Part shown: one piece after another, positions 2,271-21,327 of the stretch | How positions within the stretch are numbered: the first letter of the stretch is position 1 | Layout: every line of letters starts with the position of its first letter | Source of the DNA: Vectrevirus T147P1 | Strand: one strand, 5' to 3' | DNA length: 43,705 nt | Sequence record: OZ035788.1 | The notes under the pieces: generated by a model | Databases searched by the model: none | Told to the model about the DNA's origin: nothing | The model's input: the letters and a program-made list of their open reading frames with translations, nothing else | Program-made: the position numbers and the translations under genes

Positions 2271-2308
2271 TAATAGGTAATATAGGTTAACCTAGGTTAT
2301 ATAGGTAT
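2271..2308 (+). repeat. promoter-proximal AT-rich TAGGT element (copy A)
   Basis: TAATAGGTAATATAGGTTAACCTAGGTTATATAGGT; contains the 13-mer AGGTTATATAGGT also present at 14177-14189. Confidence 0.5.
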
Positions 2309-2382
2309 GCCTTAGTATGGGTGTACTCCTGTACACCCTATTCCTTACTACCTTACTATATTTACATAATAGGAGAGAGACA

Positions 2383-2661
2383 ATGGCTAATGATTATAGT
2401 AGTCAACCATTAACAGGTAAGTCTAAGAGAAAGCAGGTACAACCTGTAAGTGAAGAACTAATGCTTCCGGTACTCAAAAAAGAGGAAGTTAGTAAGAAAA
2501 GCAATGTTATTAATGATGCCACCAAATCAGGTAAACAGAAAGGGGCCATGGTGTGCCTTGAAGTGGAAGGTGGTGTATTGAAGATTGCTATCGCGGTTGA
2601 TGGCAAAGAAGATTCAGAGTGGAAGTTAGTAACAGTGGAACCAACTGTTAACCCAGTTTAA
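2383..2661 (+). CDS. hypothetical protein, paralog A of a tandem pair
   Basis: ORF with GGAGAGAGA RBS; shares the SGKQKGAMVxLE block and flanking residues with the next ORF. Confidence 0.6.
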   Translation: MANDYSSQPLTGKSKRKQVQPVSEELMLPVLKKEEVSKKSNVINDATKSGKQKGAMVCLEVEGGVLKIAIAVDGKEDSEWKLVTVEPTVNPV

Positions 2662-2679
2662 GATAAGGAGGAAGATTAC

Positions 2680-2979
2680 ATGGCTAAATATGGTACTACA
2701 GGTTCTGTTACTGGTCAGGCTTTTCGAGTAAAAGCAGTACAAACTATTGCAACGGCAATCCCGATGCCTGTTGTTAAAGAAGCAGACCTTAAGAGTAAAG
2801 ACCACCCTATCAACATCAAACATTTATCAGGTAAACAGAAAGGTGCAATGGTTGCTCTTGAGAAAGGTGACACAACCCTGCATATTGCTGTTGCACGTGG
2901 CAGTGAACCAACAGACCCTTGGGATGTAACTGGTATGGAAGAGGAAGCTGTTACTCCAGCAGGGTATAATAATGCTTAA
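2680..2979 (+). CDS. hypothetical protein, paralog B of a tandem pair
   Basis: AGGAGG RBS; clear paralogy to 2383-2661. Confidence 0.65.
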   Translation: MAKYGTTGSVTGQAFRVKAVQTIATAIPMPVVKEADLKSKDHPINIKHLSGKQKGAMVALEKGDTTLHIAVARGSEPTDPWDVTGMEEEAVTPAGYNNA

Positions 2980-3316
2980 TAAATACTTCAAGCGTAAAGA
3001 GTTTGCTTGCCGTTGTGGCTGCGGTACATCCACTGTTGATGCTGAATTACTACAGGTAGTCACAGATGTGCGTGAGCATTTCGGTGCACCTGTAGTTATC
3101 ACCTCTGGGCATCGCTGTGCTAAGCACAACTCCAATGTAGGAGGAGCTAAGAACTCCATGCATCTTACTGGTAAGGCTGCTGACATTAAGGTACGAGGCA
3201 TCTTACCTTCTGATGTACATAAGTATCTTACTGATAAGTACCAAGGCAAATATGGGATTGGTAAGTATAACTCCTTTACTCATATTGATGTACGTGACGG
3301 GTGTGCACGATGGTAG
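2972..3316 (+). CDS. putative endolysin, zinc peptidase M15-type cell wall hydrolase
   Basis: 114 aa; motif SGHRCxxHNxxVGGAxNSMHLTGKAADI typical of peptidase M15 family; followed by small membrane protein and spanin-like ORFs. Confidence 0.7.
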   Translation: MLNKYFKRKEFACRCGCGTSTVDAELLQVVTDVREHFGAPVVITSGHRCAKHNSNVGGAKNSMHLTGKAADIKVRGILPSDVHKYLTDKYQGKYGIGKYNSFTHIDVRDGCARW

Positions 3317-3424
3317 GTTGTGTTGCATGGTGTGAACGCATGGTTGCTAAGGCTTCAGAGGGAGGCAACTATGAAGATTGGCAGAACTACTCAACTTTAT
3401 TAGCTCAATGGAAAGGGAGATGCA

Positions 3425-3574
3425 ATGAAAAAGCTGTTCAAATCTAAGAAGGTTGTAGGTGCACTAGTTGCATTGGCAATTGCTCTTGTTTCTGTAGGTC
3501 TTGGTGTAGACCTTGGCTCTGGCACGGAATCCTCTGTGACAGACGTGGTCTGCCAAGTGATCACCTGTGAATAA
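3425..3574 (+). CDS. small single-TMD membrane protein (holin/antiholin-like)
   Basis: 49 aa, MKKLFKSKKVVGALVALAIALVSVGLGV; GGGAG RBS; sits between endolysin and spanins. Confidence 0.45.
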   Translation: MKKLFKSKKVVGALVALAIALVSVGLGVDLGSGTESSVTDVVCQVITCE

Positions 3575-3788
3575 GTTTCTAGAATTGCTGGCAGGTCTTA
3601 TTGGCCTGCTTGTCTCTGCTAAGAAGAAACAAGAAGAGAAGGAGGCACAAAGTGAAGCGAATCATGTTAGTGACAATCCTGCTGATTGGTTCGCTGACCA
3701 CTTCCGGGTGTCAGCAGGCGTTACCAGAGAAAGCAATGGTGAAACCTCTGAGGCCGACGCTGACGGCAGTTTACGAGGTAGACGATAA
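3567..3788 (+). CDS. putative i-spanin (Rz-like), GTG start
   Basis: N-terminal hydrophobic anchor LLAGLIGLLVSA followed by charged region; overlaps an out-of-frame lipoprotein ORF; short for an Rz protein. Confidence 0.4.
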   Translation: MNKFLELLAGLIGLLVSAKKKQEEKEAQSEANHVSDNPADWFADHFRVSAGVTRESNGETSEADADGSLRGRR

Positions 3789-3861
3789 AGTCTGCTTCAG
3801 TAAGCCTGATGCTACAAAATTAGGTTTGTATATTCTTTCGCTAGAACGCGGATATAATTAA
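3652..3861 (+). CDS. putative o-spanin lipoprotein (Rz1-like), GTG start
   Basis: AAGGAGG 6 nt upstream of GTG; signal peptide with lipobox-like LTTSGC; embedded in and extending past the i-spanin ORF in another frame. Confidence 0.5.
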   Translation: MKRIMLVTILLIGSLTTSGCQQALPEKAMVKPLRPTLTAVYEVDDKVCFSKPDATKLGLYILSLERGYN

Positions 3862-3890
3862 TACATAGCTTTATGTATCAGTGTCTTACG

Positions 3891-3913
3891 ATTTACTGGA
3901 CACTATAGAAGAG
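3891..3913 (+). promoter_or_regulatory. phage RNAP promoter upstream of tailspike 1
   Basis: ATTTACTGGACACTATAGAAGAG, exact consensus. Confidence 0.8.
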
Positions 3914-3992
3914 GTAAGATAGCGCCGTTCTTTTGAGCGGCCTATTACTAGCCAATCTTCATGGTGAGGGTTGGAAAGTAATAGGAGGTTTA

Positions 3993-5885
3993 ATGGCAAG
4001 ATTAACTCGCCCTGTTAGTGTATTTAATAGTCTGATGGATATTACTTACCCATGCTCCACTGATGGTGGTAAAGCGGAACTACTACAGGTTATACCCGGA
4101 CGTATGTCTGGTGGTGGTATCCTACTTTGGGACGCCAGTATGCCTCAGTCCAATCATAATGGTATTACCATCCTCAGCCCTGAAGCTAAATGGGATGGTA
4201 CTCTAGAAGGTTTTAAGGCCTATAGGGAAAGTGGAGGGACTGGCAATGGTTGCTGGGTTCGACCACGCAAAGGTACTGATCTGATGGCATCTTGGGCTGG
4301 TGTTGACACAGACGGGGACTGGATTGCGGATGAGCCACTTATGGCGCTGTGTCAGATTGCACATACACAACGTCGTAATATACGCATAGACTCTGGTGCT
4401 GTCATTCGTTGCGGTTTCACAACTCCGATTTCTCAGCAAGACAAGCACAACATTCTATCTCAAACATCTTTTGTATTACGTGGTTTAAAGAACTTCTCCA
4501 TATATGCTGAGCAAGATGCAGAGATAATCACAGACCACCCTGTACATCGTGAGCGTACAGTATTCTTCTTGGACGGTTGCGATAAGGTTACAATTTCTGG
4601 TCTTAAGTTTAATTCTGATTTCAGCGATTATTCTTTCGAACCTAATAGTCCCTATGAGCACCATATCAATGAACACTGGTTAGGTGTAGTTGCAGAGGCT
4701 TGTGGTACTGTTGAGGTTCGCAGATGTAGGTTCAATGCACCTCAGTTTGCTGTAAAGGCCGACTGTTTTAATAGAACAGACGGTAGGTGGAATGACACAG
4801 TTGCAGTAAAAGATTGTTTCTTCCAGTATGCTACAAACTATTGCTTTTTATCACGTAAGTTACGACATTACATCTTCTCTGATAATGAAGTAAGATTTAA
4901 TGGACGTAAGTGGCATACATATGGAGAGGCTTGTGCTCCTACTACCTATACTGAGAATCAGATTATCACTCGTAACCGTTTCATAGATCAGATTGCTGGT
5001 CAAAGCTGTATAACTCCTGGTTCTTATGCTAAGCAAGTACTTATTTCAGATAACTTCTGTCAACGTAGTAATGGTATCTTTGTTGAGATAGGCAGTGCTA
5101 GTAATATTAATATTCTTAACAACGTCTCCAAATCTACAGGTGAACGCATCGTCCACGGAAGTGATAAGTATGCAGGAACTACACATATCCTTCTAGTATC
5201 TGGGGCAGTTGATGATGAACCTGCTGGTGGGCTAAGTAATATCTTGATTCAAGGTAATAACTTCCAAGGCGGTGGTTATGCTTTACAAGAGTACAATACA
5301 GGCATCCCTATTCGTCGCGGGTTGGATATTCTTAATAACCACCTTGTAGACTGTATTCCACCAGCCTGTACTAACCAATCCTTTAAGTATATTAGGGTAG
5401 AAGGTAACTACATCCAAGCACCGGATGATTACCCAGATATGGCTATTGCAGGTCAACACCCTATTATCAAGGATAATGTCCTTATCGGTGTGCGATTGAG
5501 GGCTAGAGATTTAGGTTATACTGTTGTAGGGTTAAAAGTAATAGGTAATACTTTTACTGCAAATAGTGTAGCATCTAAGTTCCCTGCACTGATAGACTAC
5601 ACTGATCTAGAAGATCTTGAAGCTTATGACAACGCAGCAGGTATTCAGGCATCTTATGATAGCTTTATAGTAGCACCTGATTACTGTAATAAAATTAGCT
5701 TTATGAAAGTAGGTATGGTTGAAGGTTTTACACAGACACCAGCAGCGGTTTATGGTAGTAAGTTGCAAGGCCAGAAGGCAGGTGCGATTGTTGGCAATAG
5801 TGCACCTGGGTCTGTACATGGTTGTGCTGCATTCGTGAGTACTTCTAGTGGTGGTTGGGGTTTTATAAACTACGTTCCCGCATAA
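3993..5885 (+). CDS. tailspike protein 1, beta-helix depolymerase-like
   Basis: 630 aa from the ATG after AGGAGG (ORF opens at 3933); repetitive beta-helix-like segments (NILIQGNNFQGGGY, ITRNRFID); position after terminase as in SP6/K1-5. Confidence 0.75.
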   Translation: MARLTRPVSVFNSLMDITYPCSTDGGKAELLQVIPGRMSGGGILLWDASMPQSNHNGITILSPEAKWDGTLEGFKAYRESGGTGNGCWVRPRKGTDLMASWAGVDTDGDWIADEPLMALCQIAHTQRRNIRIDSGAVIRCGFTTPISQQDKHNILSQTSFVLRGLKNFSIYAEQDAEIITDHPVHRERTVFFLDGCDKVTISGLKFNSDFSDYSFEPNSPYEHHINEHWLGVVAEACGTVEVRRCRFNAPQFAVKADCFNRTDGRWNDTVAVKDCFFQYATNYCFLSRKLRHYIFSDNEVRFNGRKWHTYGEACAPTTYTENQIITRNRFIDQIAGQSCITPGSYAKQVLISDNFCQRSNGIFVEIGSASNINILNNVSKSTGERIVHGSDKYAGTTHILLVSGAVDDEPAGGLSNILIQGNNFQGGGYALQEYNTGIPIRRGLDILNNHLVDCIPPACTNQSFKYIRVEGNYIQAPDDYPDMAIAGQHPIIKDNVLIGVRLRARDLGYTVVGLKVIGNTFTANSVASKFPALIDYTDLEDLEAYDNAAGIQASYDSFIVAPDYCNKISFMKVGMVEGFTQTPAAVYGSKLQGQKAGAIVGNSAPGSVHGCAAFVSTSSGGWGFINYVPA

Positions 5886-5890
5886 TCACA

Positions 5891-5917
5891 AGGCAGTGCG
5901 TAAGCACTGCTTTTCAC
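5891..5917 (+). terminator. hairpin plus T-run between the two tailspike genes
   Basis: GCAGTGC-GTAA-GCACTGC stem-loop (7 bp, GNRA loop) followed by TTTTCAC. Confidence 0.45.
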
Positions 5918-5970
5918 GCAACTTTTCTTAAAGGTTATCATGGTGGTAGCCTTTCAGAAAAGGAGGTTAC

Positions 5971-7683
5971 ATGCTTCAAAGATTAAGTGCTTACTTGGTG
6001 AAGTACAAGAGTAAACTAACAGGTACTATTGAGCGCCTGCTATCTGATAAACTATCGGATACAATAGATGTTGCGGATTTTGGAGTTAATCCATCTTCTA
6101 ATGACAACAGGCAAGCCCTTCAAGCTGCATTCAATGCGGTCAGATTTCTAGGCGGTGGTACTGTATCAGTCACTAAAGCTGGCGAATATAAACTCAGTGG
6201 TACTGTTGAGATATTTGCTAATACACACTTCAAGGTTGCTAAAGGTGTAACATTTGTACGTGACTACGAAACAGGAGATACGCTATTCAGATTATCACAA
6301 GGGCAAGCTAGTAATGTAACAGTCAGTGGAGGTGTCTATGAAGGCAATGGTCACATTAAAGGAGATACACCTTTTGTAGTATTTGCATCTACTAGTAATA
6401 ATGATTTGAAGTTTGAAGGCATAACAGTTAACAATGTAGTGGACTACCACGCCATAGATTTAGCAGATTGGAACAACGTAGTTATTCGTGATTGTAAGTT
6501 CCTAGGGTTTAAGAATACAGGCAGTCGTAACTTCTCAGAGGCTATACAGTTAGACCCAGGACTTATTACAGTAGGTCGCTATGTGCAGTCTAGTGGTTTA
6601 CTGGTAGAGAATTGCTATGCTGGCCCAAACCTTGATTCTGGATTTGGCGGGTATGGTGCTCTAGTAGGAAATCATGCATCAGCTTATGGTGTTCAAGATA
6701 ACAACATTAGAATCCTAAATTGCACTACAGATGGTGCGCTCTTTGCAGGTGTACGTGTATTTAACTGGAAAAACTGGACAGTACGTGGTTGCACCTTTAG
6801 AAACTCTAATGCAAGAGGTATTCATGTTACACCTGTCTCCTCTCAAACTAAACCGCAAGGAACTCGACAAGGTAGTGTTGTAGATTGTACTTTTGATGGC
6901 GTAAGAACACCAGTGCTAATTGCGGCACCATCTTGGCCTTTTACCGATATTAGTGACATTTGGCATGACCATGTTGAAGTTTCTAATAATACTATGATCC
7001 TCACAGAGGATGTATCCTATGGTATAGATGCAAGGTGGTGTAAGAATTTAATTGTAAAAGGTAATACAGGCTCTGGTGGCTTAGGGTTAATCGGTTTACG
7101 CTTTGGGACAAAATACCACATCGAAGGTAATACTTGGGAAAACGGAAGAGGTAGTGGGATTTGGTTAGGTGAGTCTGATGCTGCTACATTCATTGGTACT
7201 GGCTTATCGGGCGAAGGTATACTTAGTCGTAATATCCTCTCTAAATTAGGGCAATATGGTATTCATGTAAACTGCAAGGTTGGCGGTCTAGTGATTAAGG
7301 CTAATAATATGAAGGAAGTATCTACAGCTGAAGCAGGTAGGCACTTCATTAGCATAGACACAGGAGCTAACAACATCCTAGTAGAAGGTAATATTGGAGT
7401 AGATGGAGAAAGCCCTAACAAGCCAAGCCTTGGTATTCGTGTTACTTCTTCTTGCTCCAATATTAAACTAATTGGCAATGATTGCTATGGTACGCAAGCA
7501 CCTCAGAATAACCAAGGAGTCGGTTCTAGTACGGTGATTGTTTATGGACTAAATGGTAATCCTACAACTTTAGGCGTAGGTGCACCTGTAGGCTCTTTAG
7601 CAACTGATATCAATGGGTCTGGTGGTAGTACATTGTACGTTAAAGAATCTGGTACATCTGCTCAAGGTTGGGTTGCAAAGTAG
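5971..7683 (+). CDS. tailspike protein 2, pectate-lyase-like beta-helix
   Basis: 570 aa; AGGAGG RBS; repeated beta-helix rungs (NNIRILNCTTDG, VRGCTFRNSNARGIHV). Confidence 0.75.
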   Translation: MLQRLSAYLVKYKSKLTGTIERLLSDKLSDTIDVADFGVNPSSNDNRQALQAAFNAVRFLGGGTVSVTKAGEYKLSGTVEIFANTHFKVAKGVTFVRDYETGDTLFRLSQGQASNVTVSGGVYEGNGHIKGDTPFVVFASTSNNDLKFEGITVNNVVDYHAIDLADWNNVVIRDCKFLGFKNTGSRNFSEAIQLDPGLITVGRYVQSSGLLVENCYAGPNLDSGFGGYGALVGNHASAYGVQDNNIRILNCTTDGALFAGVRVFNWKNWTVRGCTFRNSNARGIHVTPVSSQTKPQGTRQGSVVDCTFDGVRTPVLIAAPSWPFTDISDIWHDHVEVSNNTMILTEDVSYGIDARWCKNLIVKGNTGSGGLGLIGLRFGTKYHIEGNTWENGRGSGIWLGESDAATFIGTGLSGEGILSRNILSKLGQYGIHVNCKVGGLVIKANNMKEVSTAEAGRHFISIDTGANNILVEGNIGVDGESPNKPSLGIRVTSSCSNIKLIGNDCYGTQAPQNNQGVGSSTVIVYGLNGNPTTLGVGAPVGSLATDINGSGGSTLYVKESGTSAQGWVAK

Positions 7684-7842: not shown

Positions 7843-7913
7843 GCAGGTTAATATCTTAGTGTACACAAGGGTAGACCTAGGTTTGCTCTTAGTGTATTTA
7901 CAATGGAGGTCTT

Positions 7914-7994
7914 ATGTATATACCTATGGAAGCAATAGTAGGTTGCCTATGCTTGTTGATAGGTTTCGTTATAGGCTTAATAGTAAATCCTTAG
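7914..7994 (+). CDS. tiny hydrophobic peptide
   Basis: 26 aa MYIPMEAIVGCLCLLIGFVIGLIVNP with GGAGG RBS 5 nt upstream. Confidence 0.3.
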   Translation: MYIPMEAIVGCLCLLIGFVIGLIVNP

Positions 7995-8056
7995 TCCTGT
8001 ACAAGGATTAACCAAAGTCAAAATTTTGATATAGGCGTGTGTCAGCTCTCTCGCCC

Positions 8057-8330
8057 TCGCCCTCGCCGGATTTCCCCCATATGGGGCCGCGCTGCGGTTG
8101 GCTTGGGAATTGGGCTGGGCTGGTCCGTCTTCGACGGGTGGCCTAGGGCTTGCCGAGGTCTGCTCTTAGTGACTGCACAAGGAGAACGCCTAGGAAGCGC
8201 TAGGGCACGCCTTAGTATTGGACAAGGTGATTGCCTTAGTGAAGCCTCTTAGTGCATTCCTTAGGCCATTCAGGGTGTTTATGAGGGATTGACAGGGTAT
8301 GATGGCGTGGGCTATCTGTTCGTTTCGTTC
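8057..8330. other. candidate terminal-repeat / physical genome end region
   Basis: GC-rich block beginning TCTCTCGCCCTCGCC, with palindrome CCCCATATGGGG (8085-8096) and a T7 CJ-like ATCTGTT (8313-8319); strongly reminiscent of the T7 terminal repeat; exact ends not determinable. Confidence 0.4.
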
Positions 8331-8638
8331 ACTCCGCTTGCGCTACGTTCACTCGCTCACGTGTACCTTAGGTTATTACTTGATGGATAGCTTAGGTTAA
8401 CCTTAGTGGACTACCTTAGTTAAAGCCTTAGTGCTTATCTTAGTAATAGCTTAGTAGTGTACCTTAGTAAGTCTTAGTGTCTTCTCTTAGTGATTGCACA
8501 TGCAAGCATGTAAGATGCCATTAGGTCGCGGTCGGTAGACCGCTAAAGAAAGAGAATAGTAATAAGATGCAGTAAGAGGAACACCGGAAACCTAGCCAAC
8601 CTAACCTATCCTAGCTCTGTATCTATTGCTTTTCCTTA

Positions 8639-8654
8639 GTCTCACATGTTAGAC
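8639..8654. repeat. degenerate copy of the 16-bp palindrome (GTCTCACATGTTAGAC)
   Basis: One mismatch to GTCTCACATGTGAGAC. Confidence 0.4.
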
Positions 8655-8688
8655 AACCTATCTTATTCTTAGTGATGATAACTTAGTG

Positions 8689-8717
8689 TTGACAAGATAA
8701 TCTTAGTGTAATACTAT
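8689..8717 (+). promoter_or_regulatory. candidate host sigma70 early promoter
   Basis: TTGACA, 17-nt spacer, TACTAT, upstream of the first early genes. Confidence 0.35.
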
Positions 8718-8860
8718 GCATCACGTAGGCGGTGCTGAGGCACCTAGTAGCCAGCTAGTAAGGCATACGAAGAGACTAGTGCTTACATTGCTCTTTAACA
8801 ATTTGCTTAGTGTAACCTATGTATGCCGTGGTTAATTACTTATTGAATGAGGGATTAACT

Positions 8861-11375: not shown

Positions 11376-14003
11376 ATGCAAGACCTACACGCTATTCAAC
11401 TTCAACTTGAAGAAGAAATGTTTAACGGCGGTATCCGTCGCTTTGAAGCGGACCAACAACGCCAGATTGCATCCGGTAATGAATCAGACACGGCATGGAA
11501 TCGCCGCTTATTGTCCGAGTTAATCGCGCCAATGGCTGAAGGTATTCAGGCTTATAAGGAAGAGTACGAAGGCAAGCGCGGTCGTGCACCACGTGCATTG
11601 GCTTTCATTAACTGCGTAGAAAATGAAGTGGCAGCGTATATCACGATGAAGATCGTAATGGATATGCTTAACACTGATGTAACCTTGCAAGCTATCGCTA
11701 TGAATGTAGCTGACCGCATCGAAGACCAAGTGCGCTTCAGTAAACTAGAAGGCCATGCAGCTAAATATTTTGAGAAGGTCAAGAAGTCACTTAAGGCAAG
11801 TAAGACTAAATCATATCGCCATGCGCACAATGTAGCGGTCGTGGCTGAGAAGTCAGTAGCTGACCGTGACGCTGATTTCTCTCGCTGGGAAGCGTGGCCT
11901 AAAGATACCTTGCTACAAATTGGTATGACCTTGCTAGAAATACTGGAAAATAGTGTATTCTTCAACGGGCAGCCTGTTTTCATCCGCACCTTGCGTACTA
12001 ATGGCGGCAAACACGGTGTTTACTACTTACAGACTAGTGAACACGTTGGCGAGTGGATAACCGCCTTCAAAGAGCACGTAGCGCAACTAAGCCCTGCATA
12101 TGCACCTTGCGTTATTCCTCCGCGTCCGTGGGTTTCACCTTTCAACGGTGGGTTTCATACTGAGAAAGTAGCAAGCCGTATCCGCCTTGTTAAAGGCAAC
12201 CGTGAGCACGTCCGTAAGTTAACTAAAAAGCAAATGCCAGCGGTCTATAAGGCTGTTAACGCCTTACAAGCTACTAAGTGGCAGGTTAACAAGGAAGTAT
12301 TGCAGGTAGTAGAAGATGTTATTCGTCTAGACCTCGGTTATGGTGTACCTTCCTTTAAGCCGCTCATTGACCGCGAGAACAAACCAGCTAACCCTGTTCC
12401 TCTTGAGTTCCAACACCTGAGAGGCCGTGAACTGAAAGAGATGCTTACGCCAGAACAGTGGCAAGCTTTTATAAACTGGAAAGGAGAATGTACCAAGCTG
12501 TATACCGCTGAAACTAAGCGCGGAAGCAAGTCGGCGGCGACCGTTCGCATGGTTGGACAGGCCCGTAAATACAGCCAGTTTGACGCAATTTATTTTGTGT
12601 ATGCACTGGACAGCCGTTCGCGCGTTTATGCGCAATCTAGCACGCTCTCGCCGCAATCAAACGACTTAGGCAAGGCATTGCTCCGTTTTACCGAAGGGCA
12701 GCGTCTTGATAGCGCTGAGGCGCTTAAGTGGTTTTTGGTGAACGGGGCGAATAATTGGGGTTGGGATAAGAAAACTTTTGACGTGCGCACCGCTAACGTG
12801 CTGGATGGCGAATTTCAAGACATGTGCCGCGATATTGCAGCCGACCCGCTGACCTTCACTCAATGGGTAAATGCTGATTCCCCTTACGGCTTCCTTGCAT
12901 GGTGCTTTGAATATGCGCGTTATCTGGATGCACTGGATGAAGGCACGCAAGACCAATTCATGACGCACCTACCCGTCCATCAAGACGGTAGTTGCTCTGG
13001 TATCCAGCACTATAGCGCGATGTTACGCGATGAAGTAGGTGCGAAAGCAGTAAACCTTAAGCCTTCTGACTCCCCTCAAGATATTTATGGCGCGGTTGCG
13101 CAGGTTGTTATCCAGAAGAATTACGCCTACATGAATGCAGACGATGCAGAGACTTTCACATCTGGAAGCGTCACACTTACAGGTGCAGAACTGCGTAGCA
13201 TGGCTAGTGCGTGGGATATGATAGGAATCACTCGCGGATTGACCAAAAAGCCCGTAATGACACTACCTTATGGCAGCACACGTCTAACCTGCCGTGAATC
13301 AGTGATTGATTATATCGTTGATTTGGAAGAAAAAGAGGCCCAACGAGCTATTGCGGAAGGACGTACCGCCAATCCTGTACATCCTTTTGATAATGACCGT
13401 AAGGACAGCCTGACACCTAGCGCAGCTTATAACTATATGACAGCTTTAATCTGGCCTTCTATTTCGGAAGTGGTTAAAGCTCCTATAGTGGCAATGAAAA
13501 TGATTCGTCAGCTTGCCCGTTTCGCAGCTAAAAGGAATGAAGGCCTAGAGTATACCTTGCCTACTGGCTTCATCTTGCAACAAAAGATAATGGCTACTGA
13601 TATGCTCCGCGTATCCACTTGCCTGATGGGGGAAATCAAGATGAGTCTACAGATTGAAACGGACGTAGTGGATGAAACGGCTATGATGGGCGCTGCTGCT
13701 CCTAACTTTGTGCATGGTCATGATGCCAGTCACCTTATCTTAACAGTCTGCGACCTTGTTGATAAAGGGATTACATCTATCGCAGTCATTCATGATTCTT
13801 TCGGTACTCACGCAGGCCGTACAGCCGATCTACGTGATAGTCTAAGGGCAGAAATGGTGAAGATGTATCAAGGCCGTAATGCCCTGCAAAGCCTGTTAGA
13901 TGAGCATGAAGAACGCTGGTTAGTAGACACCGGAATCCAAGTGCCAGAGCAAGGAGAGTTTGACCTTAACGAAATCTTAGTATCTGACTATTGCTTCGCA
14001 TAA
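11376..14003 (+). CDS. single-subunit DNA-dependent RNA polymerase (SP6/T7 family)
   Basis: 875 aa; N-terminus [32 protein letters not shown]... and internal [25 protein letters not shown] / [11 protein letters not shown] / IHDSFGTHA match SP6 RNAP as recalled; AGGAG RBS. Confidence 0.97.
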
Positions 14004-14011
14004 TATTAATA

Positions 14012-14040
14012 GGCCATTCCTTCGGGAGTGGCCTTTTCTT
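14012..14040 (+). terminator. intrinsic terminator after the RNAP gene (TE-like)
   Basis: GGCCATTCC-TTCG-GGAGTGGCC hairpin (9 bp, UUCG loop) followed by TTTTCTTTT. Confidence 0.6.
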
Positions 14041-14076
14041 TTACCTACTACCGGTAACATTTCATTAACATAAAGT

Positions 14077-14092
14077 GTCTCACATGTGAGAC
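14077..14092. repeat. 16-bp palindrome GTCTCACATGTGAGAC (copy 1)
   Basis: Perfect palindrome immediately upstream of the promoter at 14095. Confidence 0.8.
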
Positions 14093-14094
14093 TT

Positions 14095-14117
14095 ATTTAC
14101 CGGACACTATAGGATAG
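14095..14117 (+). promoter_or_regulatory. phage RNAP promoter
   Basis: ATTTACCGGACACTATAGGATAG. Confidence 0.7.
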
Positions 14118-14158
14118 CCGTCGGAGACGGGAAAGAAGGGAAGATAAAGGATATAAAA

Positions 14159-14215
14159 GGAAGTAATAGGTATTAAAGGTTATATAGGTTTACCTAGGAA
14201 TACCTATTACCTTCC
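14159..14215. repeat. AT-rich element with 16-bp inverted repeat arms (copy B); candidate replication origin core
   Basis: GGAAGTAATAGGTATT ... AATACCTATTACCTTCC arms flank AGGTTATATAGGT; lies between two phage promoters just downstream of the RNAP gene, the layout of the T7 primary origin. Confidence 0.45.
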
Positions 14216-14258
14216 TCCTTCCTCTTATTACTACTTAGAGGAAGGGCAGACCTAAGTT

Positions 14259-14274
14259 GTCTCACATGTGAGAC
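14259..14274. repeat. 16-bp palindrome GTCTCACATGTGAGAC (copy 2)
   Basis: Perfect palindrome immediately upstream of the promoter at 14280. Confidence 0.8.
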
Positions 14275-14279
14275 TTCGT

Positions 14280-14302
14280 ATTTACCGGACAGTATAGATA
14301 AG
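14280..14302 (+). promoter_or_regulatory. phage RNAP promoter (variant, G at -5)
   Basis: ATTTACCGGACAGTATAGATAAG. Confidence 0.5.
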
Positions 14303-14459
14303 ACTAACTTACTTTGGAGATTTAACCATGCGTAACTTTGAGAAGATGACCCGTAAAGCTAACCGTTTTGACATGGAAGAAGGGCAGACTAAAGGCAAGA
14401 AGCTTAATAAACCTGTCCGCGACCGTGCATCTAAACGCGCTGCGTGGGAGTTCTAAGTT

Positions 14460-14681
14460 ATGGCTAAATACAGGATTAAGACGTGTTTAAACAATCAGGG
14501 GCATGAGTGCTATATAGTACAGCGTAAGGTTCTACTGGGCTTGCTGTGGGTTACTTGTATGATGCCTATTGGCTACACTGACACTGAAGCCATCTTTGGC
14601 ACGGAAGATGATGCCTACAGATTCATCGCTAAACGTAGAAAAGTAGAACGTTATAAACACAGAATTATTAAGGTAAACTAA
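14460..14681 (+). CDS. hypothetical protein
   Basis: 73-aa ORF with GGGAG RBS; stop overlaps the primase start (TAATG). Confidence 0.55.
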   Translation: MAKYRIKTCLNNQGHECYIVQRKVLLGLLWVTCMMPIGYTDTEAIFGTEDDAYRFIAKRRKVERYKHRIIKVN

Positions 14682-16669
14682 TGGCTATAATCAATAACAT
14701 TCAATGCCCTGCTTGTGCTAAGAACGGGCATGATAAATCCTCTAATCATCTCATGATATTTGATGATGGTGCTGGCTACTGTAATCGTGGACACTTTCAT
14801 GATAATGGTAGACCTTACTACCACAAGCCGGAAGGTGGCATCGAGATAACCGAGTTACCTATTACTGGCAATATCAAATATACACCTTCTCAATTCAAAG
14901 AAATGGAGAAGGAAGGGAAGATAAGCGACCCTAAATTACGTGCCATCGCACTAGGTGGTATGCGTATGAAAGACCGTTGGGAGGTCATGAATGAGCAAGA
15001 AAGGGCAGACCAAGAAGCAGAGTGGAAACTTGATGTTGAATGGTTCCTCACGCTTAAGCGTAAGAACCTTGTTTCCCGACACATTCGCGGCGACATTTGC
15101 GCATTGTATGATGTACGTGTCGGACACGATGAAGAGGGTAGAGTCTCGCGGCATTACTATCCACGCTTCGAGAAAGGTGAGCTAGTAGGAGCTAAGTGTC
15201 GCACATTACCTAAAGACTTTAAGTTTGGTCATTTAGGTAAACTCTTTGGTATGCAAGACCTTTTCGGGATGAATACTTTGTCTCACGTGTTAGACAAGGG
15301 AAGACGAAAGGACTGCTTGCTCATTGTCGGCGGCGAACTGGATGCACTAGCAGCGCAGCAGATGCTCCTTGATTCTGCCAAGGGTACTAAGTGGGAGGGT
15401 CAGCCATACCATGTATGGTCTGTCAACAAAGGCGAGTCTTGCCTTGAAGAGATAGTGCAGAACCGTGAGCATATCGCCCAATTCAAGAAGATTATATGGG
15501 GTTTTGATGGAGATGAGGTAGGGCAGAAGCAGAATCAGCAAGCGGCTCGCCTGTTTCCTGGCAAATCCTATATCCTTGAATACCCCTCTGGTTGCAAAGA
15601 TGCTAACAAGGCATTGATGGCTGGCAAGGCTAAAGAATTTGTAGATGCATGGTTTAATGCCAAGTCATCTGATGAAGTCTTTGGTAGCCAGATTAAATCT
15701 ATTGCATCTCAAAGGGATAAGCTCAAGGCTGCACGTCCAGAGCAAGGACTATCATGGCCTTGGCCTAAGCTGAACAAGGTAACGCTAGGTATTCGTAAGA
15801 ATCAGCTTATCATTGTAGGTGCAGGGTCTGGTGTAGGTAAGACTGAGTTCCTTCGTGAAGTAGTTAAGCACCTCATTGAAGAACACGGTGAATCTGTAGG
15901 CATCATTTCTACAGAAGACCCGATGGTCAAGGTGTCCCGTGCTTTTATCGGCAAGTGGATTGATAAGCGTATTGAGTTACCGCCAACCAACGACCCGAAA
16001 GAAGATGGATACCGTGAGGTGTTCGACTACACCGAGGAAGAAGCTAACGCCGCCATTGATTATGTAGCTGATACAGGTAAGCTGTTTGTGGCTGACCTAG
16101 AGGGTGACTATTCGATGGAAAAGGTAGAGCAAACTTGCCTAGAGTTTGAGGCTATGGGCATTTCTAATATCATCATTGATAACTTAACGGGGATTAAATT
16201 AGATGAGCGTGCTTTTGGTGGGAAGGTTGGTGCACTTGATGAATGCGTCAAGCGGATTGGTACTATCAAAGACCGACACCCGGTTACTATATTCCTTGTA
16301 TCACACCTTACACGTCCTCCGGCAAACCGTACCCAACACGAAGAAGGTGGCGAAGTTATCCTTTCTGACTTCCGAGGCTCAGGCGCTATCGGATTCTGGG
16401 CATCTTACGCCTTGGGGATTGAGCGTAATACAAGAGCTGAAACGCTTGACGAAAGGACTACCACGTACATCTCATGTGTCAAAGACCGCGACCAAGGTAT
16501 CTGGACTGGAACCAAGGTCATGCTTAAGGGTGACATTCAAACCGGACGTTTAATGGAACCACAAGCCCGTACTAAGTCATTTGATACAGGTGAAGCAAGG
16601 CAACAAGAAGTGCCGGATTTACCGGACACTATAGAAGAGACAACCTTTGACGATGAACAGGAGTTTTAA
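14681..16669 (+). CDS. DNA primase/helicase (T7 gp4-like)
   Basis: 662 aa; N-terminal Cys4 zinc ribbon (CPACAKNGHDKSSNH...CNRGHFH), Walker A GAGSGVGKT of the DnaB-like helicase domain, acidic C-terminus ending in F. Confidence 0.95.
   Translation: MAIINNIQCPACAKNGHDKSSNHLMIFDDGAGYCNRGHFHDNGRPYYHKPEGGIEITELPITGNIKYTPSQFKEMEKEGKISDPKLRAIALGGMRMKDRWEVMNEQERADQEAEWKLDVEWFLTLKRKNLVSRHIRGDICALYDVRVGHDEEGRVSRHYYPRFEKGELVGAKCRTLPKDFKFGHLGKLFGMQDLFGMNTLSHVLDKGRRKDCLLIVGGELDALAAQQMLLDSAKGTKWEGQPYHVWSVNKGESCLEEIVQNREHIAQFKKIIWGFDGDEVGQKQNQQAARLFPGKSYILEYPSGCKDANKALMAGKAKEFVDAWFNAKSSDEVFGSQIKSIASQRDKLKAARPEQGLSWPWPKLNKVTLGIRKNQLIIVGAGSGVGKTEFLREVVKHLIEEHGESVGIISTEDPMVKVSRAFIGKWIDKRIELPPTNDPKEDGYREVFDYTEEEANAAIDYVADTGKLFVADLEGDYSMEKVEQTCLEFEAMGISNIIIDNLTGIKLDERAFGGKVGALDECVKRIGTIKDRHPVTIFLVSHLTRPPANRTQHEEGGEVILSDFRGSGAIGFWASYALGIERNTRAETLDERTTTYISCVKDRDQGIWTGTKVMLKGDIQTGRLMEPQARTKSFDTGEARQQEVPDLPDTIEETTFDDEQEF
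16617..16639 (+). promoter_or_regulatory. phage RNAP promoter inside the 3' end of the primase/helicase gene
   Basis: ATTTACCGGACACTATAGAAGAG. Confidence 0.7.
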
Positions 16670-16830: not shown

Positions 16831-16847
16831 TGTATTTATCAGGGCTT

Positions 16848-16863: not shown

Positions 16864-16896
16864 AGGCTCTTATTAAGTACATTAAATAACTGGAGA

Positions 16897-17625: not shown

Positions 17626-17635
17626 GGAGTTAATC

Positions 17636-17854
17636 ATGACTAAAGTATTAATTTATATGCGTGGACCTCATAAATGCTATGCAGTTGTAGCACCAAATGG
17701 TGTTAAGCCCTATAGTACTTCAAAAGGATTGGCATTAATAGGTGCTAGTAGTAGTGCAAGTTTCCAAATGGAACTTTTTGGTCATTGGAATGAAAGGCAA
17801 TTCCGTGAGGATTTTAAAGTCATTGGCAGCTTCATGGTGAAACATGCAGAATAA
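17636..17854 (+). CDS. hypothetical protein
   Basis: 72-aa ORF with AAGGAG RBS. Confidence 0.55.
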   Translation: MTKVLIYMRGPHKCYAVVAPNGVKPYSTSKGLALIGASSSASFQMELFGHWNERQFREDFKVIGSFMVKHAE

Positions 17855-17867
17855 ACATAGTCTTAAA

Positions 17868-18020
17868 ATGTTCGATGGTCATGAAGACCTGCAAGCCAAG
17901 ATTACTAACCAAGCCTTCCTGTTTGCACAGTTAACTATGGCTGAAGCAAAGAAGAATAGCCTGACGCGTGAACAGGTTATCAAGGAAAGTGAAGTGAAAC
18001 GTAAGATTCGCAGTCGATAA
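17868..18020 (+). CDS. small hypothetical protein
   Basis: 50-aa ORF MFDGHEDLQAKITNQAF...; no clear RBS. Confidence 0.25.
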   Translation: MFDGHEDLQAKITNQAFLFAQLTMAEAKKNSLTREQVIKESEVKRKIRSR

Positions 18021-18030
18021 GTCAAGGGTT

Positions 18031-18046
18031 GTCTCACACGTGAGAC
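18031..18046. repeat. 16-bp palindrome variant GTCTCACACGTGAGAC (copy 4)
   Basis: Centre dinucleotide differs; arms conserved; extended stem GGTTGTCTCAC / GTGAGACAGCC. Confidence 0.8.
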
Positions 18047-18077
18047 AGCCTTTCATCATATTGATTGGAGGTGCATT

Positions 18078-18185
18078 ATGCCACGTGATTATGATTCTGA
18101 TTGGGACTATTATGACTCAATGAATCCAAAACCCGAACGTTCAGATGATTACTACGAAACAGAGGCAATGTATGAAGACTATTGA
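18078..18185 (+). CDS. small acidic Tyr/Asp-rich peptide
   Basis: 35 aa MPRDYDSDWDYYDSMNPKPERSDDYYETEAMYEDY; GGAGG RBS 7 nt upstream; overlaps the DNA polymerase start. Confidence 0.4.
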   Translation: MPRDYDSDWDYYDSMNPKPERSDDYYETEAMYEDY

Positions 18186-20718
18186 TTGGAAGAAGGAGGC
18201 AGAAGGTCGTATCCTCGTGATGGATGCGGAAGCTAAAGGACTCCTTGACGCTATCCGATATGGACACCGTGAAGATGTGCATATCATTTGCTGCATGGAT
18301 TTGCTTACTACCGAGGAGTTTCTCTTCTTTGACCCGTATGAGATGCGTGACCCTGAAGCAAGAGAACGCCTGAAGGAATGGGAAGGTCATCAAGATGGAA
18401 CCTTGGTTGACGGTGTTAACTTCCTGAAGCACTGTGAGGCTATTGTGTCGCAGAACTTCCTAGGGTATGACGGTCTTCTCTTTGAGAAAGCATTCCCTGA
18501 TATTTGGAAAGGCTTTAACTATACCGAGAAGCGCGGTAAGGGCAGACTCCGTGCTGACCTGTGTCCTATCCGTGTTGTAGATACGCTGGTGATGAGTCGT
18601 CTGCTAAACCCAGATAGACGCCTTCCTCCGCAAGCATATGCCAAAGGCATGGGTAACGTCGCCCCTCACTCAATTGAGGCGCACGGCATCCGTATAGGCC
18701 GCTATAAACCAGAGAATGAGGACTGGTCTAAACTAACTGACCACATGGTTCACCGTGTACGTGAAGACGTGGCAATTGGTCGTGACCTTTTCCTATGGCT
18801 TTACAACGGAGAGTGGACGGAGCACAAACGCCGTGGCGTGAATAAACGTACTGGCCTAGGTATTGAGACAGCCTTCCACATGGAGTCCATTGTGGCGCTG
18901 GAGATGAGCCGTCAGGCCGAGCGCGGGTTCCGTCTGGACATCGACAAGGCTTTGGCCCGATGCGAAGAATTGGACGCTAAGATTGACGAGACAGTCGCAG
19001 CGTTCCGCCCTCACATGCCTATGCGTATCAAGTCTAAACCTTTTAAACCGGAAGAAAAGAATGAAGTATGCCAACGCGCAAATGAGTATGGAGCTAGCAA
19101 CAATATACCTACTGTCCTTGACCCCTCACACTTTCTTCATGCCGAGAGACGAGGAGATCGCAAGACAGTATGGAGTGTCACTACTAAGTCTGGTGATTGG
19201 TCGGCTAGTGTCAAGAAAGACTTTCCTCACCTTAGAGGAAACCGTAATGACACGCCAAGCATCAAGTGGATTGGCGCTTACTCGCCTGTTACTTTCGAAG
19301 AGATTCCCTTGGGTAACAGGGATACAGTTAAGCAAGTGCTCTATGATTATGGATGGAAAGGTGTTGAATTTAACGATACCGAGCAAGCGCATCTCGATGA
19401 GCACGGAGTGTTACCCAAACCTTGGAGTGGTAAGATAAATGAAAAGTCCCTTACTTTATGGCAAGAAAGAGCCGCACGTGAAGGTAAAACAGTCCCTGAT
19501 TGGTGCTTGGGTATCGCTGCATGGTACATACTCGTATCCCGTCGTGGTCAGATACTCAACCGTGGTGACGTTGAAGCCTTCAACGAGAAGGGGACGTGGC
19601 CCTCGCAGGCTGGTGTACGAAAGTGTCGCGGCCTTGTACCTGTAGCATTCAACAAGGAGCTAGGAATCAATGCGCAGCAATACTACGAGAGGTACGGATG
19701 TTGGCCTACGTCTGATAAAGATGACGGAGAGTGGCGTGTTCCAGCTGTTGCTATTAGCATTGGCACTTCTACGTTCCGTATGCGTCATCGTAACGTGGTT
19801 AATGTTCCTGCCCGTGGCTTGTATCCTTTACGTGATTTATTCATAGCAGGGAAAGGCAAGCTAATCCTTGGTTGTGACGGTGCAGGTCTTGAACTGCGTG
19901 TCCTGTCTCACTTCATGAATGACCCTGAGTACCAAGAGATTGTACTGCACGGTGATATTCATACGCATAACCAGATGAAGGCTGGTCTTCCTAAGCGTGA
20001 TATGGCGAAGACGTTTATATACGCCTTCCTCTATGGCTCTGGTATAGCCAACCTTGCAGCAGTATGTGGTGTTACTGAGGAAGAAATGAAGGAAGTTGTG
20101 GCAAGATTCGAGATTGAACTGCCGTCTCTTGCACGTCTTCGTGAGAATGTTATCGCACAAGGTAACAAGTTTGGCTACCTGCAAGCACCTGATGGGCATT
20201 GGGGTCGCATCCGCATGTCTGGTGGTGAACTTAAAGAGCACACGATGCTTAACGTATTACTCCAGATGACTGGCTCTTTGTGTATGAAATATGCATTAGT
20301 CAAGGCATTTGCAGTAATGCGCAAGGAAGGTGTAGCCTTGGATGCTATGGGAAATCCTTGTGGTGTGGCTAACGTGCATGATGAAATCCAGATGGAAGTC
20401 CCTGAAGAGGAGGTCTTGTATCTTAACTACGACCTACCTTTCACCTTAGATGGGTTCGAAACAGAGAAGGCTGCCGTGAAAGCAGTATTCGATGCAGAGG
20501 AGAAACGTGTTCATGTGGATTCTGAAGGACGTATGTGGTCTGCTGCAAACCTCGTTAGTGTTGATGCTGATGCTGGTGTATTGCATTGCCAGCGCCGTTA
20601 TCACCGTGCAGGTCATATCATTGCCGACGCCATGACTTGGGCAGGGCAGTATCTGAAGATGCGTTGCCCGATGGCAGGCGAATATAAGATTGGCGCAAGC
20701 TGGAAGGAAACACACTGA
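18172..20718 (+). CDS. DNA polymerase, family A (T7 gp5-like)
   Basis: About 848 aa; N-terminal exonuclease-like ILVMDAEAKGL; polymerase motifs including HDEIQMEVPEE; start chosen at the ATG after GAGG (ORF opens at 18145). Confidence 0.93.
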   Translation: MKTIDWKKEAEGRILVMDAEAKGLLDAIRYGHREDVHIICCMDLLTTEEFLFFDPYEMRDPEARERLKEWEGHQDGTLVDGVNFLKHCEAIVSQNFLGYDGLLFEKAFPDIWKGFNYTEKRGKGRLRADLCPIRVVDTLVMSRLLNPDRRLPPQAYAKGMGNVAPHSIEAHGIRIGRYKPENEDWSKLTDHMVHRVREDVAIGRDLFLWLYNGEWTEHKRRGVNKRTGLGIETAFHMESIVALEMSRQAERGFRLDIDKALARCEELDAKIDETVAAFRPHMPMRIKSKPFKPEEKNEVCQRANEYGASNNIPTVLDPSHFLHAERRGDRKTVWSVTTKSGDWSASVKKDFPHLRGNRNDTPSIKWIGAYSPVTFEEIPLGNRDTVKQVLYDYGWKGVEFNDTEQAHLDEHGVLPKPWSGKINEKSLTLWQERAAREGKTVPDWCLGIAAWYILVSRRGQILNRGDVEAFNEKGTWPSQAGVRKCRGLVPVAFNKELGINAQQYYERYGCWPTSDKDDGEWRVPAVAISIGTSTFRMRHRNVVNVPARGLYPLRDLFIAGKGKLILGCDGAGLELRVLSHFMNDPEYQEIVLHGDIHTHNQMKAGLPKRDMAKTFIYAFLYGSGIANLAAVCGVTEEEMKEVVARFEIELPSLARLRENVIAQGNKFGYLQAPDGHWGRIRMSGGELKEHTMLNVLLQMTGSLCMKYALVKAFAVMRKEGVALDAMGNPCGVANVHDEIQMEVPEEEVLYLNYDLPFTLDGFETEKAAVKAVFDAEEKRVHVDSEGRMWSAANLVSVDADAGVLHCQRRYHRAGHIIADAMTWAGQYLKMRCPMAGEYKIGASWKETH

Positions 20719-20834
20719 TGGATAAGCTTGACATTGTTTGCCTATTCTTCACTTTCTTTCTTACACTCCTTATGCTTGCTTGTTATGGGAGTATGAGACT
20801 AGATATACCTGATGAAGAAGAGGGTTACGACTAA
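20718..20834 (+). CDS. small membrane peptide
   Basis: 38 aa, hydrophobic core; ATG overlaps the polymerase stop. Confidence 0.3.
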   Translation: MDKLDIVCLFFTFFLTLLMLACYGSMRLDIPDEEEGYD

Positions 20835-20932
20835 TGCAAACTGCTTTTATTATTCTTGGTATCATAGTATTTATGGTAGTACTCTGGGCCTTCTCTGGCA
20901 TTGACCCGGATTGTGATGGTAACTACGACTGA
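20834..20932 (+). CDS. small membrane peptide
   Basis: 32 aa MQTAFIILGIIVFMVVLWAF...; TAATG coupling. Confidence 0.3.
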   Translation: MQTAFIILGIIVFMVVLWAFSGIDPDCDGNYD

Positions 20933-20989
20933 GTTATACTCAAGGTCACTTACGAGTGGCCTTTATGAATAACTTAACTGGAGAGTATT

Positions 20990-21250
20990 ATGATTAAATC
21001 ACAGAAGTATTTCTCAACTAAAGATCGTAAGGTAGGTTTTGAAATCAAAGTTTGGGAAGACGGACACATTACTATTATTTACGAAGGTAAAGGTTCTAAT
21101 GGTATGATGCTACGTAGATGCCGTACATTCACAAAGAAAGAATGTATGCATATGTCTGAATGCATGTTTCTTTACATCATTGCTGATGATATTAAAGGTA
21201 TGAAGCTAATTGTATCTCTACCTTTAATACCTAAATCTTTGTTAGGTTGA
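20990..21250 (+). CDS. hypothetical protein
   Basis: 86-aa ORF with GGAGAG RBS. Confidence 0.55.
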   Translation: MIKSQKYFSTKDRKVGFEIKVWEDGHITIIYEGKGSNGMMLRRCRTFTKKECMHMSECMFLYIIADDIKGMKLIVSLPLIPKSLLG

Positions 21251-21272
21251 TTTATTGGACACTATAGAAGGA
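21250..21272 (+). promoter_or_regulatory. phage RNAP promoter
   Basis: ATTTATTGGACACTATAGAAGGA. Confidence 0.7.
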
Positions 21273-21285
21273 AAGCCTAGACAAT

Positions 21286-21327
21286 CTAGGTTTATAAGGT
21301 AGTATAGGTAATTAAGTAAATATAGGA
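21286..21327 (+). repeat. promoter-proximal AT-rich TAGGT element (copy C)
   Basis: CTAGGTTTATAAGGTAGTATAGGTAATTAAGTAAATATAGGA; related to copies A and B. Confidence 0.4.

Follow-up and report, generated by a model that had tools for sequence, protein, structure and literature searches.

TAGGT-type pentamer arrays with a 9/10-nt period behind three promoters of an SP6-group phage: a conserved cis-element family and candidate replication-origin modules

Replication of bacteriophage T7 begins at the tandem promoters phi1.1A/B and can also use phiOR and phi6.5, while plasmids carrying the phiOR origin require T7 RNA polymerase and the loss of RNase H (PMC8373140), a combination that points to priming from an R-loop. 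The stretch of DNA analyzed here (sequence record OZ035788.1, 43,705 bp, hereafter the window) is the complete, circularly permuted genome of Vectrevirus T147P1, a K1-5/K1E-like member of the Molineuxvirinae, i.e. of the SP6 group of T7-like phages. It is 98.6% identical to K1-5 over 1.2 kb, and its physical left end, as aligned to the left end of SP6, lies at about position 8047 of the window, to which all coordinates below refer. The genome carries about 12 phage promoters of the GGACACTATAGAA type, every one of them on the + strand, and by "leaders" we mean the regions downstream of these 12. Three of the leaders contain arrays of AGG-centred pentamers spaced by 9 or 10 nt, which constitute a real, conserved and previously unannotated family of cis-elements. 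The arrays and the promoters that precede them are as follows:

2226–2248, + strand: promoter of site 1, AATTACTGGACACTATAGAAGGA, with +1 at 2243, directly after the terminase large subunit gene (326–2227)
2270–2310, + strand: site 1 array, TAGGT at 2274, 2283, 2293 and 2302 (spacing 9, 10 and 9 nt; chain scan and Tandem Repeats Finder)
14077–14117, + strand: palindrome GTCTCACATGTGAGAC (14077–14092) and promoter A of site 2, ATTTACCGGACACTATAGGATAG, with +1 at 14112
14147–14199, + strand: site 2 array, six units, AAGGA, AAGGA, TAGGT, AAGGT, TAGGT and TAGGA (chain scan and Tandem Repeats Finder)
21250–21272, + strand: promoter of site 3, ATTTATTGGACACTATAGAAGGA, with +1 at 21267
21268–21328, + strand: site 3 array, AAGGA at 21268, a degenerate TAGAC at 21277, TAGGT at 21287, AAGGT at 21296 and TAGGT at 21305

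Each array lies downstream of a GGACACTATAG-type phage promoter (+1 at 2243, 14112 and 21267), begins about 2–36 nt after the +1 and finishes within about 90 nt. The units recur every 9 or 10 nt, 3–6 times, on the transcribed strand (in site 2 they start at 14147, 14157, 14167, 14176, 14185 and 14195), and the position weight matrix gives an equal consensus at the three sites, (a/c)-T-A-G-G-T-A-(a/g)-t. When the genome was scanned throughout for NAGGW units in chains of three or more, 8–11 nt apart, exactly three chains were returned on the + strand, at 2274–2302 (4 units), 14147–14195 (6 units) and 21287–21305 (3 units, flanked by further ones at 21268 and 21323), against a random expectation per genome of 0.23 chains of at least three units and 0.005 of at least four; for TAGGT clusters the expectation is 0.02–0.05 per genome. 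Tandem Repeats Finder independently identified arrays with a period of 9–10 at 2258–2307 and 14146–14184. The leaders of sites 1 and 2 align locally over about 140 nt with a score of 72 (other leader pairs reach at most 37–41), while the leader of site 3 scores 48 and 42 against these two.

The proposal of an earlier note on this DNA, that a common element lies in the transcribed leaders of three phage promoters, therefore holds, and its third copy near 21286–21327 was borne out by the array units at 21287, 21296 and 21305; the homology that it extended to the surroundings applies to sites 1 and 2, site 3 being a weaker relative. The weight that it placed on a 13-mer, AGGTTATATAGGT, was nevertheless overrated. 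The identity between 2294–2306 and 14177–14189 is exact, variants with 1–2 mismatches occur at 2275 and 21297, and six matches within 2 mismatches are observed against 1.33 expected, but first-order Markov random genomes of the same composition contain about 21 identical 13-mer pairs each, i.e. the identity by itself is at chance level. The significance of the element rests instead on the periodic array, its conservation and the leader alignment, and its defining feature, the 9/10-nt periodicity of the AGG-centred unit, was absent from that account. The description as AT-rich is correct for the window (68–73% AT against 55% for the genome) but does not define the element, the arrays of Erwinia phages being by eye about half G+C. 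Only two other TAGGT-type clusters were seen in the window: three ACCTA motifs at 8590–8609 (- strand), with 9–10 nt spacing, in early non-coding DNA near the left end, which are present in SP6 too, and three TAGGT at 42308–42332 (+ strand), spaced by 15 and 9 nt within the large internal-virion-protein gene and conserved in K1-5, which are probably a coincidence of coding.

The motif search in related genomes revealed that the element is conserved in other genera and linked to promoters there. K1-5 and SP6 carry all three arrays, the coding DNA of SP6 being only about 76% identical to the window, and those of sites 1 and 2 are found also in Proteus phage PM116, Pectobacterium phage PP1 and Erwinia phage phiEa100, as well as in about 20 further distinct IMG/VR contigs per site; the phages that share these two arrays differ in promoter specificity. 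PP1 gives no chain in the strict 8–11-nt scan because its spacing is interrupted, while its TAGGT clusters are clear at both positions. A further PP1 cluster (625–661) was considered as a left-end, phiOL-like array and rejected, as it apparently lies inside a small membrane-peptide open reading frame (ORF) and forms no 9/10-nt chain. The array of site 3 is limited to Vectrevirus and Zindervirus (13 of 13 loci) and was not found in the homologous leader of PP1. When 15 site 2 leaders of Vectrevirus and Zindervirus are aligned, the AGG columns do not vary while the spacers do, and the spacings at site 2 across relatives comprise 39 of 9 nt, 39 of 10 nt and hardly any other, while those at site 1 are 9–11 nt, or 19–20, 28–30 and 39 nt.

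In distant phages (Colwellvirinae, e.g. Vibrio phage AS51, and unclassified contigs with terminase identity of 51–60%; loci L032, L036, L039, L044–L056 and L061) a similar succession of promoter, array, hairpin and pyrimidine tract follows the terminase gene, with pentamers of their own (AGAGC, AGTAG/GGTAG, AGTAA, AGAAGC or TAGAA) and with the 9/10 alternation kept. The pentamer is swapped between clades (TAGGT, TAGAGC, AGTAGC, AGAAGC) and the 9.5-nt period is fixed. AS51 exhibits the TAGAGC core at both positions, and the pentamer of a distant clade often resembles the start-site region of its own promoter, as in L051 (promoter ...CAATAGAAGC, units TATAGAAGC). In Erwinia phages the site 1 array takes the form of a 27-bp tandem super-unit, TAGGTAGGCCCAGGTTATCCAGGTCTA (L007 40681–40819; L029; L030), the copy number of which varies between close relatives (about 5 in phiEa100, 7 in L029 and 1–2 in L030), and the chain scan gives chains of up to 16 units. 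In every clade the arrays lie within about 100 nt 3' of a phage promoter and in equal orientation. Concerted evolution of sites 1 and 2 within genomes was considered and rejected, their similarity within one genome being only modestly above that between genomes (56 against 43).

The surroundings of site 2, between the RNA polymerase gene and the homologue of T7 gene 1.1, contain in addition to promoter A and the array:

14011–14034, + strand: intrinsic terminator after the RNA polymerase gene (11376–14003)
14118–14130, + strand: small 5' hairpin CCGTC-GGA-GACGG, 13 nt, with compensatory changes in relatives
14199–14237, + strand: G-less pyrimidine-rich tract, 39 nt, the second longest in the genome
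14259–14302, + strand: second copy of the palindrome (14259–14274) and variant promoter B, ATTTACCGGACAGTATAGATAAG, with +1 at 14297
14328–14456, + strand: T7 gene 1.1 homologue, 42 codons (Pfam PF08200, E = 7e-16)

Since the gene after site 2 is the gene 1.1 homologue, site 2 corresponds in place to the T7 interval with phi1.1A, phi1.1B and the AT-rich primary origin. It is found at 13.9% of the genome length, phi1.1A/B (5848–5923 of 39,937 bp) at about 15%. Both loci thus follow the RNA polymerase gene and precede gene 1.1 (or its homologue) at about 14–15% of the genome, and both combine two tandem phage promoters with a downstream non-template strand that is C-poor, AT-rich and purine-rich. 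Our reading of the T7 sequence suggests that its AT-rich region is itself a loose array of about seven (C/T)TTAAG-like units. The two differ in that the repeats lie between the two promoters here and after the second one in T7, and in that the TAGGT units are set strictly at 9/10 nt, whereas the T7 units are irregular (9–13 nt) and exhibit no sequence similarity to them; moreover, origin activity has been proven for T7 and is only proposed here. As the array follows promoter A and promoter B intervenes before the gene, it is not a leader for a particular gene. It stays with promoter A despite insertions of HNH (homing-endonuclease) genes downstream (PM116 and UAB_Phi78-like phages), and also in Erwinia phages, where the downstream gene differs. 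In the window, an additional 73-codon ORF (phrog_24605, 14460–14681) separates the gene 1.1 homologue from the primase-helicase gene; it is missing from K1-5, hence the BLAST coverage of K1-5 of 87% over 13400–15000; the site 2 array is present there. In the 5' hairpin, GC pairs are changed to AU in 2 of 15 sequences (variants CCATCGGAGATGG, CCCTCGGAGAGGG and CCATCGAAGATGG).

Site 1 shares with T7 phiOR a promoter directly after the terminase large subunit gene (the arrangement is identical in K1-5, SP6, PM116, PP1 and Ea100), followed by a purine-rich leader (C-poor in phiOR, 0.11), a hairpin and a small gene. T7 lacks a regular array at phiOR and its downstream gene is unrelated; the distance from phiOR to the right terminal repeat is about 550 bp, whereas site 1 and the genome end (window 8047) are separated by about 5.8 kb. 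The features downstream of the site 1 array are:

2310–2338, + strand: CCTTAGT (2310–2316) followed by a GC hairpin, GGGTGTAC-TCCT-GTACACCC (2319–2338)
2332–2371, + strand: longest G-less (C/U/A) run of the genome, 40 nt, with two copies of CCTTACTA, leading into the Shine-Dalgarno sequence of gene 41 (ATG at 2383)

The stem of the GC hairpin differs in sequence per genus (GGGAGGTA/TACCTCCC in SP6, GGGTACT/AGTACCC in the Proteus phage, GGGACT/AGTCCC in PP1 and CCCCTCT/AGAGGGG in the Erwinia phage). No U-run follows it, unlike in the true terminator after the capsid gene, and its interpretation as a phage terminator was rejected. The CCTTAGT copy at 2310 is kept within site 1 across genera. Genes 41 (2383–2661) and 42 (2680–2979) are paralogues that belong to phrog_2725 and bear the RefSeq label "acetyl-CoA acetyltransferase"; in every clade examined, the gene after the site 1 array is a member of this family, in which a PLTGK motif is conserved. 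Searches for a Pfam domain or a homologue of solved structure found none for the two genes.

At site 3 the units are located at +2, +21, +30 and +39, and the Shine-Dalgarno sequence TAGGAG at 21323 (+57) is in register with them (18 nt, i.e. 2 x 9); the gene 15 homologue begins at 21337. Three unrelated 5' flanks adjoin one and the same site 3 promoter and array in different phages (window 21200–21256; loci L116–L128), and the promoter therefore marks a mosaic (recombination) junction.

The leaders resemble T7 origins also in composition. Of the 17 promoters annotated in T7, those with the least C in +1..+100 are phi1.1B (0.11), phiOR (0.11) and phiOL (0.13), whose leaders are purine-rich and, with the exception of phiOR (AT 0.62), among the most AT-rich; of the 12 leaders of the window, site 3 (0.09) and site 2 (0.10) have the least, with site 1 tied with two others for the third place (0.14). 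The site 2 array overlaps the longest C-less run of the genome (14129–14192, 64 nt), that of site 3 the second longest (21287–21335), and that of site 1, which a purine-rich stretch precedes, lies just after and partly within a C-less run of 36 nt (2255–2290) that ranks fifth. The 60-nt segment of the genome that most favours an RNA-DNA hybrid (RNA-DNA minus DNA-DNA nearest-neighbour energies) coincides with site 2. The GC skew of the + strand steps from 0.04–0.08 in the first 6 kb of the genome to 0.09–0.18 in the rest, i.e. at about window 14000 and site 2, but as a sign of an origin this step is weak, being confounded by the switch from early/host to middle/phage transcription. Cumulative GC skew was rejected as an origin marker on the same grounds, since it rises monotonically with only a change of slope at about 6 kb.

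The arrays are best classed with T7-type promoter-linked origin modules, the T7 primary origin and phiOR being their nearest known counterparts in position and proposed function, and their periodic structure could indicate a sequence-specific reader. That they constitute the promoter-proximal part of transcription-primed replication-origin modules is the interpretation we tentatively put forward, with somewhat less than even confidence, in view of the positional orthology, the compositional parallel and the independence of the site 2 array from any one gene; the constant placement of the arrays within transcripts, in one orientation, agrees with it too. Site 2 would then be the SP6-group counterpart of the T7 phi1.1A/B primary origin, site 1 that of phiOR, and site 3 an extra, lineage-specific secondary site. 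The suggestion of "secondary origins" made in the earlier note agrees with the positions of sites 1 and 2, except that site 2, positioned like phi1.1A/B, would be a primary origin. Formation of an R-loop, priming, loading of the helicase and any recognition of the TAGGT units by sequence are inferred. The phage RNA polymerase would start at the promoter and transcribe the C-poor, purine-rich array; the purine-rich RNA would remain hybridized to the pyrimidine-rich template, giving an R-loop; the displaced non-template strand, which is nearly C-free and so would not fold stably, would present its TAGGT units as a landing pad for the phage primase-helicase, and the phage DNA polymerase would extend the RNA rightwards from its 3' end. 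As to the primase site for the first lagging-strand primer of a T7-type origin, the SP6 primase site is given as 5'-GCA-3', which the top strand of a C-less array cannot contain. A promoter followed within about 100–200 nt by G-containing, purine-rich non-template blocks that stabilize an RNA-DNA hybrid primer is known from elements read by T7-like or other RNA polymerases, namely the mitochondrial light-strand promoter with its conserved sequence blocks and ColE1 RNA II. The likeness of the present promoters and purine-block arrays to these systems is an analogy only, as the blocks there are runs of G, while here they are pentamers with a 9.5-nt period and the hybrid is only proposed.

Several observations weigh against an origin function. 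The thermodynamic R-loop score does not single out sites 1 and 3, nor, consistently, the arrays in other genomes, and the arrays of Erwinia phages and of the AGTAG type are by eye neither AT-rich nor C-less, so that a simple rule of "AT-rich unwinding" or of a "C-less" strand is not general. The 9.5-nt period and the conserved core are neither required nor predicted by the R-loop model, and site 3 has no T7 origin counterpart and ends in a unit that is a ribosome-binding site. Taken strictly, the position of the site 2 array is that of the T7 stretch from phi1.1A to phi1.1B, which holds the RNase III site R1.1, the AT-rich origin of T7 following the second promoter. Published experimental data on SP6-group origins were not found in the searchable literature, and according to a secondary source (PMC4837284) the SP6 genome paper placed a bidirectional origin at the DNA polymerase gene and not at site 2.

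The arrays could instead act in RNA, as a 5'-leader element involved in processing, stability or translation, which we consider possible though rather doubtful. In one form of this idea, the C-less array would pair with the G-less tract into a long irregular hairpin cut by RNase III like T7 R1.1; in the other, the single-stranded array would serve as a platform of weak Shine-Dalgarno-like AGGU/AGGA motifs that recruits ribosomes or an RNA-binding protein. The arrays are indeed always inside the transcript and in sense orientation, an arm-to-arm hairpin needs such a succession of a C-less and a G-less arm, and the genome's two longest G-less runs come immediately after the arrays of sites 1 and 2. 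Site 2 shares with R1.1 its place between the two promoters, and its single-sequence folds give an irregular hairpin of 17–25 bp, with a 17-bp stem between the tract at 14199–14237 and the 3' half of the array in the window (z = -2.7 against dinucleotide shuffles) and with 12–25 array bases folded onto the downstream tract in all homologues (z = -3 to -6). There is no sequence similarity to R1.1, however, and the hairpin is not conserved in register: RNAalifold, run on the aligned site 2 leaders of Vectrevirus and Zindervirus (15 sequences; -7.4 kcal/mol, covariation term -0.35), supported only the 13-nt 5' hairpin and did not recover the long stem, in which changes seen by reading in close relatives are uncompensated (e.g. 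TAGGT to TAGAT in L089). As, moreover, folding of the site 1 leader does not surpass that of shuffled sequences (z = +0.2) and site 3 exhibits a small local hairpin only, a conserved long RNA hairpin or RNase III site was rejected. The units are not more accessible than the rest of the leader. Rfam offers no match either: its release 15 covariance models gave none at the gathering score in the whole window, and only sub-threshold noise (E <= 1) at the sites. As to translation, the leader or translation-enhancer role suggested in the earlier note fits only site 3, where the Shine-Dalgarno TAGGAG is itself the last unit, in register, and which to judge from this arrangement would be the best case for such a role; it does not fit site 2, where the array is dispensable for gene 1.1 expression on account of promoter B. 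A member of the gene 41/42 family (phrog_2725) invariably comes after site 1, as it would after a leader element, whereas AGAGC, AGTAG and AGAAGC, the pentamers of other clades, do not resemble a Shine-Dalgarno sequence and leave the period unchanged, for which reason a Shine-Dalgarno decoy was discarded too. GGA is the essential core recognized by CsrA, and a CsrA sponge of the CsrB/RsmZ type was likewise set aside, given that the dominant unit TAGGT lacks it (T follows AGG in 0.68–1.0 of the units) and that other clades use AGAGC or AGTAG.

The constant period combined with a clade-specific core suggests a co-evolving reader, and the arrays might accordingly be direct-repeat sites on double-stranded DNA for a sequence-specific oligomeric protein of the phage or the host, which would regulate transcription (as a roadblock or in timing) or mark the sites for another DNA transaction; we regard this as unlikely. 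The quantised spacing described above for site 2, and that of site 1 in steps of 9–11 nt or their multiples, the conservation of the AGG core and of the flanking T/T-A amid varying spacers, the use of one core at both sites of a genome (TAGAGC in AS51) and the variable copy number of the Erwinia 27-bp unit (1–2, 5 or 7) are all in line with it, and the iteron-type arrangement of at least three equally oriented regular repeats with a conserved core is present (3–6 units here). ParR/parC and MraZ arrays, too, consist of tandem, equally oriented units that measure about 10 bp, have a conserved core of 5 nt and lie near a promoter: parC of plasmid R1 consists of 11-bp ParR iterons, MraZ binds TGGGN repeats at 10-bp spacing, and OmpR/PhoB-type sites are comparable. 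The present arrays depart from these in their period (9.5 rather than 10–11), in being strictly inside the transcript and in having no cognate protein identified. The mean spacing of 9.5 nt falls short of the helical repeat of B-DNA (about 10.5 bp), so that six units drift by about half a turn, which is poor for binding to one face, although multiples of about 10 occur (19–20, 28–30 and 39); moreover, the strict orientation and placement within the transcript are not needed by a DNA-binding array, and sites 1 and 2 of one genome are only modestly more alike than those of different genomes. Integration host factor, named as a possible binder in the earlier note, did not fit, since none of its four consensus matches in the genome is near the arrays, and the product of gene 41/42, considered as a binder by virtue of its position next to site 1, gained no support either (no Pfam domain or solved homologue; predicted model of gene 41 of low confidence, predicted local distance difference test score 63.5; no fold search was made). 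Less probable still, in our view, is that a phage protein of replication or transcription, e.g. the primase-helicase ring or a small protein, reads the arrays as a sequence code. A lack of function, with the arrays being tandem repeats that slippage made from the purine-rich sequence transcribed first, or an AT-rich likeness due to chance, could account for the first unit often being the start-site sequence (AAGGA at +2 in sites 1 and 3, that of site 1 at 2244, 30 nt 5' of the first unit of its array; by reading, also AGAGC at +3 in AS51 and AGAAGC at +1 in L051), for the unstable copy number in Erwinia phages and for a 13-mer identity that on its own is at chance level. Such an explanation is very improbable on account of the conservation and genome-wide uniqueness of the arrays: the core and the two genome positions are unchanged in at least five genera, the coding DNA of which is at most about 75% identical, the AGG columns stay constant amid variable spacers, and the only three chains of the genome are all at these promoters, against 0.23 expected, which with the conservation across genera also disposes of chance AT-rich similarity.

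Other recurrent elements were observed in the window. About 20 CTTAGT(G/A) repeats densely flank the genome end (7855–8806) and recall the short repeat arrays beside the terminal repeats of T7; similar arrays are present in SP6 (L004 240–560) and PP1 (L006 200–520). The 16-bp palindrome that precedes promoters A and B of site 2, GTCTCAC(A/G)(T/C)GTGAGAC, is intergenic at 14077, 14259, 16848, 18031, 22828 and 39230 (with a half-site at 8639), mostly immediately 5' of phage promoters, and has a counterpart at matching places in SP6 and the Proteus and Pectobacterium phages (GTCCAACNNGTTGGAC), while Erwinia and Vibrio-type phages carry GTCTCACNNGTGAGAC. The palindrome might serve as operator, terminator or recombination site. 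A second class of leader (21730–21790 and 26029–26100) begins with GAACAA(T/A)AGG, contains a hairpin and ends with GATTGT(G/A)TAGTG; it is carried by PP1 too (GAACAAAGG...CCTTGATTGTATAGT) and may be a processing site separate from the TAGGT arrays.

No description of the arrays was found in the searchable literature, a scope that leaves the original SP6 and K1-5 genome papers outside, and neither were mapped replication origins for the SP6/K1-5 group, to which belong both therapeutic K1-capsule phages and the phage from which SP6 RNA polymerase derives. For this group the arrays provide precise candidate origins at three coordinates, as well as a sequence rule (a promoter, then at least three purine-core pentamers at 9/10-nt spacing) that finds the element across several subfamilies of Autographiviridae. 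If they are true origins, they would show how a single-subunit RNA polymerase hands its transcript to the replisome, a question common to mitochondrial DNA replication, and they would offer small portable origin modules for synthetic systems based on SP6 polymerase. If they are RNA elements or protein-binding arrays, they would represent a widespread and undescribed regulatory motif of a much-used phage family. And if the units are indeed a code, phages of the T7 supergroup would have clade-specific, iteron-like origin determinants that co-evolve with their reader, in contrast to the view that these phages need no origin recognition beyond the promoter.

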